From an uncultured Nitrososphaerota archaeon (GTDB taxonomy: Archaea; Thermoproteota; Nitrososphaeria; Nitrososphaerales; Gagatemarchaeaceae): a DNA stretch of 64,000 bases. Location: NCBI GenBank assembly GCA_963718895.1, contig CAVRAG010000007.1, positions 128,001 to 192,000 on the forward strand. Reading direction: 5' to 3'. Shown in pieces: positions 1 to 6,416 of the stretch. Position 1 is the first letter of the stretch; each line of letters begins with the position of its first letter. Under the pieces are notes generated by a model. That model was not told the origin of the DNA. It searched no databases and saw only the letters and a program-made list of their open reading frames with translations. The translations under genes and the position numbers were made by a program.

Positions 1-521
1 AAGCTGTCCGTCTCGGACGCCGTGGTCGAGAAGGCCGCTTACATCTACAGGAAGGCCCTGGAGCGCGGGCTGGTGCAGGGGAAGGTCGATCTCCGCGATA
101 ATCGCCGCCTCACTCTACGCCGCCTGCAGGGACAGGGAGACGCCGAGGACCCTCAAGGACCTTGCTGTGGTCTCCAACGTCAAGAAGAAGGACATCGCCA
201 GGTGCTACAGGCTGCTCCTCAAGGAGATGGACATCAAGATGCCCGTGGTCGACCCGACCAAGTGCGTCTCAAGGATAGCGTCCAGGGCGCAGCCTCTCCG
301 AGAGGACGAAGAGGAGGGCGCTGGAGATACTCAAGAAGGCCGAGGAGGCGCGGATCTCGGCCGGGAAGGACCCGATGGGGCTCGCGGCCGCGGCGCTCTA
401 CGTGTCGTGCACCCTCGAGGGCGAGGACAAGACCCAGAGGGACGTCGCCGAGGCTGCCGGAGTGACCGAGGTCACAATCCGGAACAGGTACAAGGGGCTC
501 AGGTCGGCCCTCGGAATATGA
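1..521 (+). CDS. tfb: Transcription initiation factor IIB, 3' part (two apparent frameshifts)
   Basis: Joined frames give EKAAYIYRKALERGLV..SISAIIAASLYAACR..PRTLKD..KKDIARCYR..GKDPMGLAAAALY..TQRDVAEAAGVTEVTIRNRYK, the two cyclin repeats of TFB; stop TGA 519-521. Confidence 0.93.
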
Positions 522-580
522 GAACTGCCGGGTGCAAATCTCTAAAGTGAGTTAGAGATTACACAGAAATTTCACCGCAA

Positions 581-588
581 TATATAAG
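581..588 (+). promoter_or_regulatory. Archaeal TATA box for the Lrp-like regulator
   Basis: TATATAAG about 35 nt upstream of ATG 623 in an AT-rich gap. Confidence 0.6.
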
Positions 589-622
589 TAACGAGTCCGC
601 GGGGCCAACGCCAACGACCTCA

Positions 623-1825
623 ATGTCTCTAGAGAGAGCCGGCGGGAACAGGGAAGAAGAAAGTTCGAACATCAAGACGGGTCAGCTGGCAAAGCTGATC
701 ACCGAGGTAGGGCCGAACATCTCGGAGATTGCGAGACGGCTCGGTCAGTACAAGGAGTCCGTCCGCTACAGGTACAAGGAGAAGTTGCTCAACAAAGGTT
801 TCGCGGTCCGGGTCGCCGTCGACCACGAGAAACTCGGGCTGCGCCGGGTCATCATGCTCATGGACTTCGCCGACGGGTACAGGGACGTCGCGGAGTTGAT
901 GCTTACAATAATGAGCTATGAAGGCTATCTGGTCGCCTTCGAGAAGGTCCTGCCTGACGGGAGGTTCCTCGTGCACGCGTCCGTGCCTGACGAGCAGGTC
1001 GAGGCCTACCGGGAGTTCTTCAGCGGCTTGAGAGAGAAGGGCTACTTCAGGTCGTTCGAGTTCCACACGTTCCACTGGTTCAGGAACTCTCCGATGAAGA
1101 CGGAGATGTACAACTTCGACGAAGGACTCTGGGACTTCGACTGGTCCACTGAGGTGAAGGTTGACAGGCAGGTTGCGTCCTACATGCCTTCGGCGAGAGA
1201 GAAGTTCGACGCCACCGACCTGCAGATCCTCAAGCAGCTCCAGATGGACGGCAACAGGAGCCTCTCCGAGATGGCCGAGAAGCTCAAAATCAACTACAAG
1301 ACGCTCACCTGGCACTTCAGGAAGCACATCGAGGAGAGGAAGCTCATCAAGGGGTACTTGATCAACTGGATGGGGACGAAGTACGACTACAAGGCAGACA
1401 GGGCGCTAAACAAGAAGCACACCTATCTCGCGGTCTCCGTCCTATTCTCAGACCTGGATCAGGCGAAGAGGATTGACGTCATGTCCCGCCTCAACCAGCT
1501 CCCCTTCATCTGGTCCGAGGCCGTCGGAGACAGGTACGAGGCAGAGCTCATCTTCCCGATCGAGTCGATCACAGAGGGGCTCCAGCTCCTGGCCGAGGTC
1601 ATCTCCGAGACCAAGACCAGCGCACGTTACTTCATCATCGACCAGCGCCACGCCCTTTCGTTCAGCATCATCCCCGAGCTCTACAACGAGTCCAAGCAGA
1701 CCTGGGAGTTCAACGACCAGCTTCTCATGCGGCGGTTCGAGAACCTGCTCCAGAGGGCAAAGGGGATAGAGCAAGAAAGCCTATCGCTGCGAAAGACGAA
1801 ACCTGGCCAGCAGATCGGCAGGTAG
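623..1825 (+). CDS. Lrp/AsnC-like transcriptional regulator with two winged-HTH modules
   Basis: N-terminal HTH (GPNISEIARRLG..VRYRY) and an internal AsnC HTH (DATDLQILKQLQMDGNRSLSEMAEKLKINYKTLTWH), each followed by a RAM-like region. Confidence 0.75.
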   Translation: MSLERAGGNREEESSNIKTGQLAKLITEVGPNISEIARRLGQYKESVRYRYKEKLLNKGFAVRVAVDHEKLGLRRVIMLMDFADGYRDVAELMLTIMSYEGYLVAFEKVLPDGRFLVHASVPDEQVEAYREFFSGLREKGYFRSFEFHTFHWFRNSPMKTEMYNFDEGLWDFDWSTEVKVDRQVASYMPSAREKFDATDLQILKQLQMDGNRSLSEMAEKLKINYKTLTWHFRKHIEERKLIKGYLINWMGTKYDYKADRALNKKHTYLAVSVLFSDLDQAKRIDVMSRLNQLPFIWSEAVGDRYEAELIFPIESITEGLQLLAEVISETKTSARYFIIDQRHALSFSIIPELYNESKQTWEFNDQLLMRRFENLLQRAKGIEQESLSLRKTKPGQQIGR

Positions 1826-2006
1826 CCGACCCTGCTGCACGGGTCGTCCCGTGATCCCAGAATCCGCCGAAGGCGCATCGATGCGCGTAAGGGGCTTGTT
1901 CCTGGAAGAGGAGAGGGCCGATTGATAGGTAGAGCAGGAACTCTTTTGGTCGTCCGGCTGCTTCAGCGAGTCCCCTAACCCGCCGCAGAACGCCCGCGGG
2001 ACATGG

Positions 2007-2037
2007 AAAGAAAAGGCGCCCCCAGGGCAAGGAGCGC
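2007..2037 (-). terminator. Hairpin plus T-tract terminator of the repeat-peptide gene
   Basis: Minus strand GCGCTCC-ttgccctg-GGGGCGC followed by CTTTTCTTT, 16 nt after the stop codon. Confidence 0.6.
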
Positions 2038-2053
2038 TAGTAGCTCAGTTTGT

Positions 2054-2242
2054 TCAGTTGCTCGGCCCGAATCCGCCGATGGGGTCCAGGGTTACATAGC
2101 TCGGTCCGAACCCGCCTATTGGATCGCAGCTAGGACCGAATCCGCCTATTGGGTCGAGAGTCAGATAGCTCGGCCCGAATCCGCCGATGGGGTCGCAGCT
2201 AGGTCCGAAACCTCCGATTGGGTCTTCTGATTGAGTGCTCAT
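2054..2242 (-). CDS. 62-aa tandem-repeat peptide (5x DPIGGFGPS), function unknown
   Basis: MSTQSE-DPIGGFGPSC-DPIGGFGPSYLTL-DPIGGFGPSC-DPIGGFGPSYVTL-DPIGGFGPSN; all differences among the 27-nt cores are synonymous in this frame. Confidence 0.85.
   Translation of the reverse strand: MSTQSEDPIGGFGPSCDPIGGFGPSYLTLDPIGGFGPSCDPIGGFGPSYVTLDPIGGFGPSN
2060..2224 (-). repeat. Five 27-bp coding repeats
   Basis: Copies at 2060-2086, 2099-2125, 2129-2155, 2168-2194 and 2198-2224, separated alternately by 12 and 3 nt. Confidence 0.95.
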
Positions 2243-2327
2243 GCAATATGGCTAGCATGGCACGGAGTTAAGCTTAGTGATTTCTTAGTATCACAGTGCA
2301 ATAGTTCATGCGGATTCCAAGATTAGG

Positions 2328-2855
2328 TCAGCCTTCCTTGACCCGGTTCTTCTTCATCTTCCTCAGCTCCTCCTCGGTGAAGAGCGTCCCGAAGTGCGTC
2401 GCGAGGATCTTGACATAGGTCTCGGTCTCCCTCTCGTTCATGTACTGGAACATGTAGTTCCCCCGGTAGGGTGAGGGTTCGCCGTCCCTCGAGATGAACT
2501 CGATGTGGATCAGCGGGTCTCCGTGCCTCACGGTTATCGGCGACCTCTCGTTGTTGAGGTTGACGAGCTCGAGGGCCAGCCTCCCCACGAAGCCGCTGTG
2601 GACCTTCACCGAGTTCAAGAAGGATAGCCCCATCCGCCCGAATCGGCTCTTGGCGGTAAGGTGAGCCACGTAGTTGGGCGGCGTGAAGATGACCTCCTTG
2701 GAGACCATGTTCCTGTGTTCCAGATAGTTCAGCGTCCTGTCCTCCCTGACCGTGAGTACGTAGCCGTCGCCGTCGAAGCCCTCGGGCGAGGTCGGGGAGA
2801 TTACCCTGTACTTCTCGACGAGCTCAGTCAGGATTGATTTGCCGATTACTGTCAT
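2328..2855 (-). CDS. dcd: dCTP deaminase / dUTPase-superfamily protein
   Basis: AKSRFGRMGL, VHSGFVGRLALELVN and PYRGNYMFQ motifs. Confidence 0.7.
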   Translation of the reverse strand: MTVIGKSILTELVEKYRVISPTSPEGFDGDGYVLTVREDRTLNYLEHRNMVSKEVIFTPPNYVAHLTAKSRFGRMGLSFLNSVKVHSGFVGRLALELVNLNNERSPITVRHGDPLIHIEFISRDGEPSPYRGNYMFQYMNERETETYVKILATHFGTLFTEEELRKMKKNRVKEG

Positions 2856-3885
2856 CCGCAGTCACCCCTCCCCGCGTGTTAATAACTCGCTTGAGGAGGC
2901 GGCTGGCGAAGTAGACCAGGCCCGGCAGCCCCAGCAGGAAGACGATGTCTATCGTAGGCACGAAGCTGTAGACGCTGTTGGAAGTCCAGGAGATCCCGTA
3001 TGCGGCCTGCCCATAGAACGCGAAGGCGTTGGCTGCGTAGTCGACGGCCCAGTGGAAGATGATGCTCGCGTGGAGCCCGTATCTGACGTAGAGATAGGCG
3101 AGCGCGACCCCGTCCAGGGCCGCCTCGCTGACCTTTCCGATGTCCCACCCGGCGCCGGAGAGGAAGTGGGCCAGTCCGAAGAGAATCGAGCTCAGGACGA
3201 TAAGGAAGTAGACGAGCACCCTCAGGGTGGGGGCAGAGTAGACCTCGGGCCCTCCGCCGGAGACGCCCTCCCACGCCGAGGAGGGCCGCCAGAGCGCCTT
3301 CAGCATTCGCGTCACGCTCGACCTCGTGAGGAGCATGACGAAGACGAGGGGTACGCCTATCAGGAAGAACCGGAATCCGACCTCCTCGATAAGTGGGGCG
3401 AGGGTGAAGCTCACGAGGAGCCCGTAGGGATCTCCGGAGAGGCCCCCAGAGGGGACGCCGGCGGACGTCTGGAAGAGATCAAGGATTATCGTCGCGAGGA
3501 GCGTCGCGCCAAGGATCATTATCGTCGCCGAGAGCGGGTTTCGCAGAAGGGCGCCCATTCCCTCCCTGGACGCGTCCTTCAGGGCGCGGACGAACCCCCC
3601 TCCCTGCACCGAGGCGAGAGCAAGGAAGAAGGCGAAGAGGACCGTCAGGGAGGCGAAGAGGATCCCGAAAGTGGGGCTGATGGGGAGGGAGATCGCGAAG
3701 AGACCGATGTAGATCGGGACCGAGGCGATCTGGGTCTGATAGGTGTACGGCGGGGTACTCGTCGAGAGGTGGGGCGAGAGGATGGCGTACGTCCCGAACG
3801 GGATGGACAGGACGAAAAGTATCAGCGTGAGCGCCACGATCGCGGCATAGACCAGTCCTGGGACATTGAGCCGGGGCCGCTCCAA
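2824..3885 (-). CDS. CPBP family (CAAX/Abi, Rce1-like) intramembrane glutamic endopeptidase
   Basis: Multiple TM helices; APLIEEVGFR, FGLAH and IIFHWAVD motifs. Confidence 0.88.
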   Translation of the reverse strand: MERPRLNVPGLVYAAIVALTLILFVLSIPFGTYAILSPHLSTSTPPYTYQTQIASVPIYIGLFAISLPISPTFGILFASLTVLFAFFLALASVQGGGFVRALKDASREGMGALLRNPLSATIMILGATLLATIILDLFQTSAGVPSGGLSGDPYGLLVSFTLAPLIEEVGFRFFLIGVPLVFVMLLTRSSVTRMLKALWRPSSAWEGVSGGGPEVYSAPTLRVLVYFLIVLSSILFGLAHFLSGAGWDIGKVSEAALDGVALAYLYVRYGLHASIIFHWAVDYAANAFAFYGQAAYGISWTSNSVYSFVPTIDIVFLLGLPGLVYFASRLLKRVINTRGGVTADDSNRQINPD

Positions 3886-3891
3886 GGAGAG

Positions 3892-4117
3892 TCAGTCCGC
3901 CCGCTTCTTCTCTTCCTTCGGGTCCTTCTGCGCCTCCTCGAGGTAGGCGATGCCCGTGTACCCGCACTTGGGGCACAGGTAGTTCTGCGGGATCGAGCCA
4001 GCCCCCGAGCTCGCCCATCTTCTGAAGCGGGGTGAGGCAGACCGGGCACAGATGCGGGGTCGTCGAGAAGACCTTGCGCCTCACAAGTCTCGGCGTGCCG
4101 ATCTCTGCGTCCTCCAA
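3892..4117 (-). CDS. Small zinc-ribbon protein (one apparent frameshift near 3995)
   Basis: Joined frames: ..HLCPVCLTPL..GWL-PQNYLCPKCGYTGIAYLEE.. Confidence 0.7.
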
Positions 4118-4174
4118 AGGTGTTACCGACCCTCAGCCAAACTCGGAGGCTTTAACGCTTTTCGCGCCGCCCGT

Positions 4175-5644
4175 TCAGGATACCAGGACGGGCACGTAGA
4201 CCGACCTTGAGGTCAGCCCGTCGGAGACCGTCATCAGGAGGAGGTACTGGCCGACGGCCGTCGATGCGGCGACCCGGACGCTGACGCTGACCCCGACCGC
4301 CCGTGGAGGGACGCGATCGAGGTGACGTTCGAGACGAATGAGAGCTTATCCGGGACGGAGCTGATGGACTCCGAGTCCGAGAAGGTGACGTTCAGGGGCC
4401 TGGTCGAGGTCCCCGTGATCTTGAGCTGGAACTGCGCGGAGGAGCCCGCCGCTATCGGCGTGACCGTGCCGTTGGCGGTCGAGGAGACCGAGAAGGAAGG
4501 CACGACCGAGTCGTTGACGAACCCGACCTGGTTCGCGGTCCATGCGGTGAACCAGACGAGGTTTCTGTCGAGCGCGATCGTGAGCGCGTTCCCTATGCCC
4601 ACCTCGTCTATGGGGACGGGGGACATCGCGTACTCCGTCAGTGACGTCTCGTTGGTCGATCTGGGCCACCCTGTTCGCGTCATGCTCGTTGAACCAGACC
4701 GAACTCCCGTTGGCCAAGAGGTAGTAGGGCAGGGTCAGCGGGAGCTTCGGGTCCGTCGAAGTGGGGTAGAACGTCCAGTTGTCGGCATTGGTGTCGTAGG
4801 AGGCGACGTAGGAAGCCTCGTGCTCTCCCACCCAGATCGACCCCTGGGAGACGGCAACGCTGTATGGTCCAAGGAGCGTCTGGTTGCCCCCCACCTGCTG
4901 GAAGGCCATCGCAGCGGCAAGCGGGTCGAACGAGAAGATCTGGCCATGGTTGTCCTGCGGGTTCACCGTGACGACGTAGGCAAGGGTGGCGTCGTGGAAG
5001 AGCATGGAAGCGGTGTACTCACCCGTGGCCGCGGGGACCGAGTGGTAGACCGGCGGGGCGGTCGCGTTGCGTATCATGCCGACCTGTCCGGGAGGCGAGG
5101 TCTCGGTGAACCAGAGGTTGTCCTCGGGATCGATGGCCAGGAAACGAGGGACGACGCTGGGTCCCAGAGGGACCACGGTGAACGACCCCGTCGTCTGGTT
5201 CATGCCGACCAGCTGGTTGTTGGCAGGGTCCGAGGCCCAGACCAGACCGTTCCAGAGGACGACCCCCCAGATCTCCGAGCGGTCGAAGCAGAGGGAGTCC
5301 GGCGTGGAGTTGGGAAAGGGCCACGGGTACTCGACCAGCGTCCCGTTGAGAGGGAAGAGGTGAGCCAGCCCGGGGACCGCGACTTCACCGAACCAGACGG
5401 AGCCGTCCGGCGCCGCTGTTATCGAGTTGGGACTCCTCAGAGGCGAGGGGAGGCTGAAGGTCGTGACGCTCCCGAACTGCGACCTCGTCAGCTGCACCCG
5501 CTGCACCGAGGTGAGGTTCGCGCAAGCGGCCTGCCCCGAAGAACTGCTCGTGCCCGTCCGTTCCTGGACAAGGACGTAGGAGCCCGCGGCTATCGCCCCG
5601 GCGAGCAGGAGGACGACGATGACCGAGACGTACCTGGCTCGCAC
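4175..5644 (-). CDS. Secreted/anchored Vgb (virginiamycin B lyase)-like beta-propeller protein (frameshifted)
   Basis: N-terminal TM; repeated blades (PNSITAAPDGSVWFGE, LAIDPEDNLWFTE, SVWFNEHDANRVA); C-terminal Ig-like domain in shifted frames. Confidence 0.75.
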
Positions 5645-5688
5645 GGCTTCATCGCGCCCCCGGAGGACGTTTTACGGGTTTCGCGGAA

Positions 5689-6348
5689 TCACGCGACGAC
5701 GTTGATCGTGCCATCCATCCAGATCGGGTGCCACTCGCAGAAGTAGGTGTACCTGCCGGGGGTCGTAAAGGTCATGCAGTTCGCCAGCACGCCGGTGGTG
5801 ACGCAGGTGTTGCCCGTGCCGGGCAGGCTGTAGAACTGGAACGGCTGGCCGCTCGTCGGCCATGCGGTCGACTCCAGGATGTGCTCCTGGTCGTCGTGGT
5901 TGGTGAAGAAGACCGTGTTGTTCACCCCGATGACTATGGTGATGTTGATCGGCTCGAACGAGACCTTGTTGGCGAGGTTCTCGATGCCCGGCGGGATTAT
6001 CACCTGCACCTCACTCTTGTTGGCGGAGGCCGAGCTCGTGCGGCTGATGCCTGAGCTGGTAGAGCTGGCTGAGCCGGAAGCTGACGAGGTGGTTGGGGAG
6101 ACGGTCGAAGCTGAACTCGAGGAGGAAGTGGCCGCAGACGACCCCGTCGAGCTCGTGGCTTGGGACGTGGCGATGGAAGACGTCGAGGACGCCGTAGTCC
6201 GGCCGCCCGTGCCCTGGGAGAAGGCGAGGTAAGAGCCGACACCCGCAAGGGCCACGATGACGAACACGAGGATGACCGCGACGCTGGAGGTTACGGCCCT
6301 CCTCTCGCTCGTGTGCTGTCTCATTCTGTTCAGAAAAATGTGCGCCAT
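5689..6348 (-). CDS. Membrane-anchored blue-copper (cupredoxin/plastocyanin-like) protein
   Basis: TM, Ser/Thr linker, then EHILE and YTYFCEWHPIWMDGTINV providing the H-C-H-M type 1 copper ligands. Confidence 0.88.
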   Translation of the reverse strand: MAHIFLNRMRQHTSERRAVTSSVAVILVFVIVALAGVGSYLAFSQGTGGRTTASSTSSIATSQATSSTGSSAATSSSSSASTVSPTTSSASGSASSTSSGISRTSSASANKSEVQVIIPPGIENLANKVSFEPINITIVIGVNNTVFFTNHDDQEHILESTAWPTSGQPFQFYSLPGTGNTCVTTGVLANCMTFTTPGRYTYFCEWHPIWMDGTINVVA

Positions 6349-6416
6349 TTGCGATTTAAGGATTCTTCACTTTGGTCGCCAAACTCTATAAGGATAGTGG
6401 CTCAACTGGGGAACCG

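Follow-up and report, generated by a model that had tools for sequence, protein, structure and literature searches.

We describe here a micro-gene from the genome of an uncultured archaeon of the family Gagatemarchaeaceae (Nitrososphaerota; assembly GCA_963718895.1, hereafter G000; 3.13 Mb in 11 contigs, 80.5% complete). It is located in a window of 64,000 nucleotides (nt), positions 128,001 to 192,000 of contig CAVRAG010000007.1 (C7:128001-192000), and encodes in 62 codons five copies of the peptide DPIGGFGPS. We hold with high confidence that the micro-gene is real and under selection. It lies tail to tail with the gene of a 400 amino acid (aa) protein, a putative transcription regulator with a double Lrp/AsnC fold, and comparison with related genomes makes it very probable that the micro-gene is a derived member of a regulator-peptide module. 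By analogy with the convergent SHP/Rgg modules, to which it is not homologous, the peptide may be a ligand or partner of the adjacent regulator; we give this reading a probability of about 0.45.

Selection on the repeated peptide

The open reading frame (ORF) of the micro-gene occupies positions 2054..2242 on the minus strand, with the ATG at 2242-2240 and a TGA stop, and is present in G000 in a single copy. Its product starts with six residues, followed by the five DPIGGFGPS units, after which stand, successively, C, YLTL, C, YVTL and N. With the tenth residue included, core unit 1 (residues 7-16, ending in C) is encoded at 2195..2224, unit 2 (residues 17-26, ending in Y) at 2165..2194, unit 3 (residues 30-39, ending in C) at 2126..2155, unit 4 (residues 40-49, ending in Y) at 2096..2125 and unit 5 (residues 53-62, ending in N) at 2057..2086, all on the minus strand; the spacers LTL and VTL, at 2156-2164 and 2087-2095, follow units 2 and 4. 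Thus the spacers comprise from zero to three residues. Tandem Repeats Finder describes the array as 2.4 copies of a 69-nt period (2060-2224, score 218) with additional sub-arrays of period 30. The 62-aa product contains six acidic and no basic residues, consists to 40% of Gly and Pro, and has no hydrophobic segment.

A preliminary description of this locus, made from the sequence alone, had listed the codons of the five cores, and we found exactly these strings, as well as the same tenth residues (C,Y,C,Y,N), (L/V)TL spacers and six-residue start. Its statement that a signal peptide is lacking is true for the window gene.

The variation between the cores is purely synonymous, as had been claimed. 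Seven of the 27 nucleotide columns vary, every one at codon position 3, and the 10 pairs of units, which share units and hence are not independent, show 41 synonymous and 0 non-synonymous differences (pS 0.615, pN 0). Units 2 and 5 have the same DNA across the 27-nt core. The five identical peptides appear in only one of the six reading frames, that of the ORF. When the comparison was extended to orthologues, as the preliminary description had proposed, 13 units from three genomes (G000, G011 and G001) gave pS 0.571 and pN 0.014, and all eight variable columns were again third positions. Since the differences between cores fall only on synonymous third positions, selection acts on the peptide and the gene is coding. 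That each repeat of so short an ORF (62 aa) is so strictly selected means that real micro-genes are missed by gene callers, even if the peptide binds nothing.

Among called proteins of near length, 26 candidates were compared with the 62-aa product and none was similar at E <= 0.01. An all-length search of 1.84 billion representatives gave 16 matches at E <= 0.001. The 10 of these 16 matches that were inspected proved to be low-complexity repeats without relation to the micro-gene, the ORFs in which they occur being for the most part long or implausible, and among them there was no sign that the micro-gene is a fragment of a larger known repeat protein. The Pfam search of the micro-gene yielded a sub-threshold low-complexity match alone (MSSP, 17.1 bits vs a cut-off of 21.2). 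It should be mentioned that one otherwise unrelated-looking protein of the representative library (P0006, 193 aa) contains about eight repeats around P-I-G-H-F-G-P that resemble the window unit; this likeness may reflect convergence or a distant link.

When 61 relatives were searched in six frames, strong matches were found in G011, G001 and G002 and weak ones, at the N-terminus, in G007 and G010; others, at E 0.15-0.39, were located elsewhere. We also inspected the DNA downstream of the dCTP-deaminase-like gene, that is, the slot of the micro-gene, in 30 loci. A small ORF was found in 11 of them, all from one genus (Ca. Gagatemarchaeum relatives), and its structure varied greatly. The slot contains five units, each followed by Y and a two-residue spacer, in G011; three units in G001; and at least six DNA-identical 36-nt units of a G..A..R variant in G002 (L023:3-155 and the end of L014), where the assembly breaks inside the array, so that the count is a lower bound and the real number may be higher. 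A single unit is encoded by a 16-aa ORF in G007 and G010 and by a 20-aa ORF in G005. The slot of G003, G013, G015 and G004 contains an ORF of 39-40 aa that has a hydrophobic part towards the N-terminus and closes with a unit of the same kind, and G017 also has an ORF of this leader type. At the G021 locus neither a small ORF in the slot nor the regulator orthologue was found. None of the 18 loci of other genera had a small ORF in the slot (in one, L043, only 41 nt were readable). A metagenome scan added one variant, L087, with three units ending in C.

The frame, the start and a promoter-like element are kept in the orthologues while the copy number differs, so that the reading frame, and not merely the nucleotides, is conserved. 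Within the leaderless forms the ORF, the start context and the promoter-like element are kept in seven species and in the one metagenome variant. When the upstream regions of 11 orthologous loci were aligned, this element emerged as a TATA-like box, rich in A and T, at 2267..2288 on the minus strand, about 29 nt upstream of the ATG; both the box and the start context are common to leader-type and leaderless orthologues at these 11 loci. It may work as an archaeal promoter, and in this case the 5' untranslated region of the micro-gene would be very short or absent. A scan for sigma-70 promoters at the locus gave no match, the sigma-70 model being not applicable to archaea. The AT-rich upstream gap reported earlier was recovered (2243-2327, 85 nt; GC 0.424 vs 0.619 in the window), and so was the terminator: a terminator-like hairpin (2037..2016) followed by a T-run is located at 2006..2037 on the minus strand. 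In the region 1700-2900 there are three terminator-like sites vs 0.8 +/- 0.9 in shuffled sequences.

The convergent putative regulator and a family of leader-plus-tail peptides

The partner of the micro-gene, which had gone unnoticed in the preliminary description, is the gene of the 400-aa protein at 623..1825 on the plus strand. The two genes are convergent, with stops at 1825 and 2054. The 10 other genomes with a peptide gene in the slot all contain strict orthologues of the regulator, at 67-90% identity compared with 50% for the next best match. The regulator family as a whole is multi-copy and was found in 91 of 97 Gagatemarchaeaceae genomes; G000 contains four other full-length paralogues and one split paralogue. 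One of the full-length paralogues (L051) has no recognisable convergent small ORF, and the split one (L053/L054) apparently extends over two adjacent frames; the G000 contigs involved in these observations are C8 and C4.

The preliminary description had suggested looking for genes conserved together with the precursor. In 36 loci compared in this way, the regulator cluster was present in 35, and other ORF clusters in 31, 21, 12 or fewer. Judged from example sequences and positions, the 31- and 21-locus clusters are probably other frames of the GC-rich regulator gene. Thus the regulator is the only gene that accompanies the peptide: among the 36 loci there was no third conserved gene, and no linked gene for tailoring of ribosomally synthesised and post-translationally modified peptides (RiPPs), cyclisation, proteolysis, or export and transport. 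Other genera have instead, directly next to the dCTP-deaminase-like gene, a convergent TFB gene, and therefore the regulator and the peptide gene look like an inserted unit.

Pfam detected in the 400-aa protein helix-turn-helix (HTH) domains only, one of AsnC type at residues 196-234 (HTH_24/HTH_AsnC) and a weak second one at residues 29-51. The sequence search of PDB retrieved Lrp/AsnC proteins only, with marginal similarity (ST1022, E about 4e-4, residues 196-297). An AlphaFold2 model based on 30 sequences (predicted local distance difference test score, pLDDT, 86.4; predicted template modelling score, pTM, 0.84) contains in one chain two successive units, each composed of an HTH and a small beta-alpha-beta-beta-alpha-beta (RAM-type) domain of the ligand-binding kind. 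Taken separately, the units match in Foldseek structures of the Lrp/AsnC/feast-famine regulatory protein (FFRP) group (ST1022, PH0061, LrpA, AsnC and others), several of them with amino-acid ligands. Both putative recognition helices contain conserved basic residues (alignment A4). On account of the fold and of these residues we call the protein a putative regulator. In two runs of complex prediction for the regulator (A4) and the 62-aa peptide (A5), made without controls, the score was 0.00 and the pLDDT of the partner was below 50; this outcome weighs neither for nor against binding.

Small tail-to-tail ORFs of 40-47 aa were also found in G000 beside three of the four other full-length regulator paralogues (L049, L050 and L052), and they can be aligned with the leader-type forms of G003, G013, G015 and G004. 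With one of them as a query we retrieved 24 called metagenome proteins of 39-63 aa, none of which is functionally named; they are entered as 'hypothetical protein' or without any name, and the sole organism given as a source is a Nitrososphaerales MAG. Neither peptide type had a match in NCBIfam, and neither Pfam nor NCBIfam holds a family for the leader-type peptides; in the ESM Atlas the leader-type peptide was similar to unnamed clusters only (best score 0.80).

To describe the distribution of these peptides we used a profile, A3, built from 23 leader-type members. Across the order it matched 81 of 301 genomes, including 67 of the 74 Gagatemarchaeaceae, compared with 0/73 and 1/73 (a marginal match) in the two largest families sampled. 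At the loci found with the peptide profile, a regulator paralogue is convergent in 29 cases out of 30, with the 3' ends 2-66 nt apart; the thirtieth locus lies at a contig end. Weak A3 matches were detected outside the Gagatemarchaeaceae, in families f7 (8/13, including the unpublished genome G193), f5, f14, f17 and f18 (E 1e-16 to 1e-3 in these five) and in f12. If a double-Lrp gene stands beside these matches too, the module is wider than one family. A3 missed the 47-aa convergent ORF of L052 (2596-2736, minus strand, contig C8 of G000), which has a different N-terminal part and a tail with D-P-I-G-G-G-P and probably represents a divergent module.

Thirty-five leader-type peptides, comprising 34 distinct sequences, were used for the tail statistics. 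The N-terminal part is composed of two basic residues, about 17 uncharged residues and a His-x-x-Pro-Leu motif, and the C-terminal tail of 9-10 residues follows the pattern acidic-(I/P)-hydrophobic-G-G-x-G-x-x. In the tail E or D is present in 30 of the 34 sequences, GG in 29-30 and the third G in 30, and the residues between them are variable. Mean pairwise identity is 0.71 in the first 31 columns (the leader) and 0.38 in the tail.

Comparison of the window unit with this family revealed that: (i) DPIGGFGPS satisfies every conserved position of the tail; (ii) the tail of L073, from another genus, differs from it in the last two residues alone; and (iii) the N-terminal part of about 31 residues is absent from the micro-gene, at whose locus A3 gave no match (the best match in the window, at E 0.61, is elsewhere). 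The homology of the micro-gene with the leader-type family is concluded from the agreement of synteny, promoter and start context, and tail. The preliminary description had recognised no described family in the motif; the micro-gene in all probability does belong to one, the leader-plus-tail family, which is unnamed but widespread. The regulator-peptide system is conserved and unannotated.

The alignments also give some insight into the origin of the leaderless, multi-copy form. Across 11 orthologous loci the six initial codons and those of the tail can be aligned, and of 24 bases compared between the G003 tail and the G007 core 20 are identical (manual count of codon rows). In a tree of the regulator orthologues (10 rows, midpoint root; G002 and G017 are left out, the regulator being fragmentary or outside the fetched locus) the leaderless forms are one clade (95/96), within which the multi-copy F-type forms are a sub-clade (100/98). 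A tree of the dCTP-deaminase-like protein did not resolve the branching. Since all other modules, from at least eight genera, are of the leader type, the most parsimonious history is a single loss of the leader through an in-frame deletion. This deletion would have removed the hydrophobic part and spared the promoter together with the start and the initial six codons; the tail would then have been tandemly duplicated to three, five or at least six copies, each unchanged at the protein level. In the G002 line the tail would have been amplified independently.

Possible roles of the peptide

The leader could be dispensed with, but every copy of the tail was kept constant and the tail was multiplied, and therefore the tail appears to be the working part; the repeated unit, present in relatives once or in three, five or at least six copies, is a discrete functional module. 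Three further facts lie behind the proposal that this part is a ligand or partner of the regulator: the strict pairing of the peptide gene with that of an HTH protein bearing ligand-type domains; the presence in one genome of several paralogous pairs, whose tails differ in their variable residues; and the combination of a conserved leader with a short tail starting with an acidic residue. It can be hypothesized that the ancestral leader-type peptide was secreted and that its tail acted on the adjacent regulator. The window form, with no export segment and several copies per chain, would supply the regulator from inside the cell. The chain might bind in one piece, in a multivalent manner, or be cleaved first at the junctions between Y or C and the spacers. 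It would then be a privatised, dosage-amplified signal. Whether the Gagatemarchaeaceae modules constitute the first archaeal receptor-propeptide signalling by peptides, with a receptor of the Lrp/AsnC fold and with the window gene as its private, intracellular, amplified variant, is more doubtful, and we propose this only tentatively. The Gagatemarchaeaceae, which correspond to the 'Group I.1c' Thaumarchaeota and inhabit acidic soils and peat, do not oxidise ammonia; their genome paper (PMC10640624) describes multiple oligopeptide ABC transporters and secreted peptidases, and in G000 there are eight matches to the oligopeptide-binding family PF00496. These data are permissive only.

Several points weigh against a ligand role. 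DNA binding and ligand responsiveness of the 400-aa protein are assumed from its fold and from the basic residues of both putative recognition helices, and the best full-length match of its model in Foldseek is an enzyme, the siroheme decarboxylase NirDL (PDB 4ch7; TMq 0.51, 12% identity). Control of the peptide gene by the regulator might be all that the adjacency of the two genes reflects. The window gene has no export segment, and hence a role as a secreted signal would need another route. The single-unit forms are merely 16-20 aa long, and the start, end and upstream region of the G005 form are divergent. The probable direction of change, from leader-type to leaderless, depends on parsimony and on the midpoint root, and the genomes compared are close kin, so that their counts are not independent.

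RNA data weigh on both sides. We compared positions 1-6400 of the window with contigs of a peat metatranscriptome (X1; 0.05 of sampled words shared). One contig of 175 nt covers the micro-gene at 2048..2222 with one difference, and two lie on the regulator gene, at 886-1036 (no differences) and 1300-1451 (one difference). They are a weak support for transcription, as neither strand nor level is shown and DNA may be present in RNA libraries. The difference in the micro-gene, 2143 C>A, changes codon 34 (2143-2141) from GGA to TGA, and therefore this natural variant ends within the third unit, a caution that truncated variants of the micro-gene exist. No contigs were found on 2355-6400 and in some other bins, which is not evidence of silence, and those on the TFB gene (1-500) had many differences and probably come from relatives.

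The alternative that survives best, although we consider it unlikely, is that the regulator acts on the small gene as its target and that the product of this gene has a role of its own. Lrp-type regulators commonly adjoin their targets. According to this explanation the ancestor was a small membrane or envelope protein, and the ancestral N-terminal part indeed resembles a membrane segment. The window product would be a soluble, very acidic, disordered micro-protein rich in Gly and Pro, to which its six acidic residues, absence of basic ones and 40% Gly+Pro would correspond, and it might have a structural role, buffer metals or protons in an acidophile, or serve as a chaperone-like spacer. A membrane role, however, could not outlast the loss of the hydrophobic part, yet the tail is strictly selected and amplified. 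Moreover, the module is duplicated 1-4 times per genome, and each paralogue has its own peptide with a differing tail, which is more typical of cognate pairs.

Somewhat less probable is a reading that follows the preliminary description: the gene would encode several cores in one precursor, from which a secreted 9-10-mer (an antimicrobial, metal ligand or signal), perhaps modified or cyclised, would be made by enzymes encoded elsewhere. Part of it stands: the cores are tandem, identical and under selection, their number differs between species, cleavage might take place at Y or C with the spacers of 0-3 residues, the peptides of the parent family consist of a leader and a core, and secreted peptidases are among the genes attributed to the family in PMC10640624. 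What does not stand is the processing machinery. Genes for tailoring, proteases or transporters are conserved with the peptide in none of the 36 loci, the window gene has lost the leader and has no recognition sequence, and it belongs to no Pfam or NCBIfam family.

The earlier statement that no tailoring enzyme lies nearby can be kept with the reservation that a CPBP/Rce1-like intramembrane protease (353 aa, 2824..3885) is encoded two genes upstream of the micro-gene. We considered it as a maturation enzyme and rejected it. Between it and the micro-gene lies the dCTP-deaminase-like gene, of divergent sequence (175 aa; PF22769 and TIGR02274 below cut-off); the two genes (2328-3885, minus strand) overlap by about 30 nt and are found side by side in 26 of the 30 loci, from various Gagatemarchaeaceae genera, some of which lack the micro-gene. 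Since the protease accompanies the dCTP-deaminase-like gene with or without the micro-gene, it is not tied to the peptide and stands outside the system. Farther upstream, at 4346-6348 on the minus strand, are two genes that look ordinary for the phylum; one encodes a beta-propeller protein of Vgb-lyase/NHL type (432 aa), the other a cupredoxin rich in Ser and Thr (219 aa).

It is improbable that the micro-gene is a decaying remnant, functionless after deletion of the leader, whose repeats are slippage products not yet eroded. Such a fate would agree with the lost leader, the unstable copy number, the divergent G005 form and the premature stop in the RNA-library contig, and also with the identical or near-identical DNA of the units in G002 and G011, which for this reason are recent. 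The units of G000, however, have diverged to pS 0.615 with no amino acid change, the ORF, start context and promoter-like element persist through the leaderless species and the metagenome variant, and the gene is present in an RNA library. Finally, a toxin-antitoxin-like system, in which the ancestral peptide would be a type I-like membrane toxin checked by an overlapping convergent transcript and the window copy would be disarmed, is very improbable: the small hydrophobic peptide genes do end 2-66 nt from a convergent gene, so that the transcripts probably overlap, but this partner is the gene of a conserved 400-aa protein and not a small RNA, the window peptide has no hydrophobic segment, and an acidic-GG-x-G tail amplified after loss of the hydrophobic part is unexpected for a pore-forming toxin.

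Comparison with known systems

In the precursors of cyanobactins and fungal dikaritins, tandem identical cores are encoded in one small ORF, and the copy number varies between relatives. The window gene shares with such multi-core RiPP precursors the tandem cores and the variable copy number and differs from them in having neither a leader or recognition sequence nor linked maturation enzymes; it is therefore not a classical multi-core RiPP locus.

With the Lrp/AsnC regulators the neighbour protein shares the combination of an HTH and a beta-alpha-beta-beta-alpha-beta unit, present twice, and with NirDL the fused double-Lrp fold over the full length. It differs from both as a single chain of 400 aa composed of two units, with marginal sequence similarity. 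The known ligands are amino acids for Lrp/AsnC proteins and a tetrapyrrole for NirDL, not peptides. If the pairing described here is functional, peptides will have to be added to the ligands of the Lrp/AsnC fold, archaea have evolved receptor-propeptide modules independently, and there is a route from a public to a private signal.

Searches of the open-access literature listed no report of such an archaeal module or of peptide-based cell-cell signalling in archaea, which does not prove that there is none, and neither 'Lrp' nor 'quorum' occurs in the Gagatemarchaeaceae genome paper (PMC10640624). Hardly any of the small proteins encoded by uncultured archaea of soils have been annotated. The locus provides a concrete pair, one 400-aa protein and a 10-mer, together with a natural series of leader-type, single-core leaderless and multi-core leaderless forms and of cognate and non-cognate pairs of paralogues in one genome.

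The closest analogy is with the streptococcal SHP/Rgg modules, of which, as stated in PMC3679016, there are several copies per genome, with the shp gene of group III located downstream of rgg and convergent to it. The Gagatemarchaeaceae modules show the same arrangement of an HTH regulator and a tiny convergent downstream peptide gene in several paralogous copies. The same paper describes a Glu or Asp conserved in SHPs, and mature pheromones of 8-9 residues, derived from the C-terminus, with D or E at the start and a Gly-rich end. The leader-type relatives resemble them in their basic N-terminus, hydrophobic stretch, conserved D/E and short Gly-rich C-terminus, whereas in the window gene only the D and the Gly-rich part are left, repeated, and the hydrophobic part is gone. 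The receptors are different: Rgg consists of HTH-XRE and TPR-like repeats, the archaeal protein of a double Lrp/AsnC fold, and there is no homology between them. Because of this difference of receptor fold the module stands outside the RRNPP/Rgg family.

A parallel to the repeats is found in the Rap-Phr (RRNPPA) systems, where, according to PMC11343458, there are pheromone propeptides with a tandem duplication of the mature peptide. Here, too, several putative mature-peptide copies per precursor are encoded by a gene beside that of the putative receptor. The Rap-Phr propeptides are secreted and matured by extracellular proteases, in contrast to the product of the window gene, which has no export segment, and the families are unrelated. 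Thus, if the analogy with these bacterial systems is correct, what is new in the Gagatemarchaeaceae would be the combination of an Lrp/AsnC-fold receptor with an unnamed peptide family, the domain of life in which it occurs, and the existence of a leaderless, amplified derivative.

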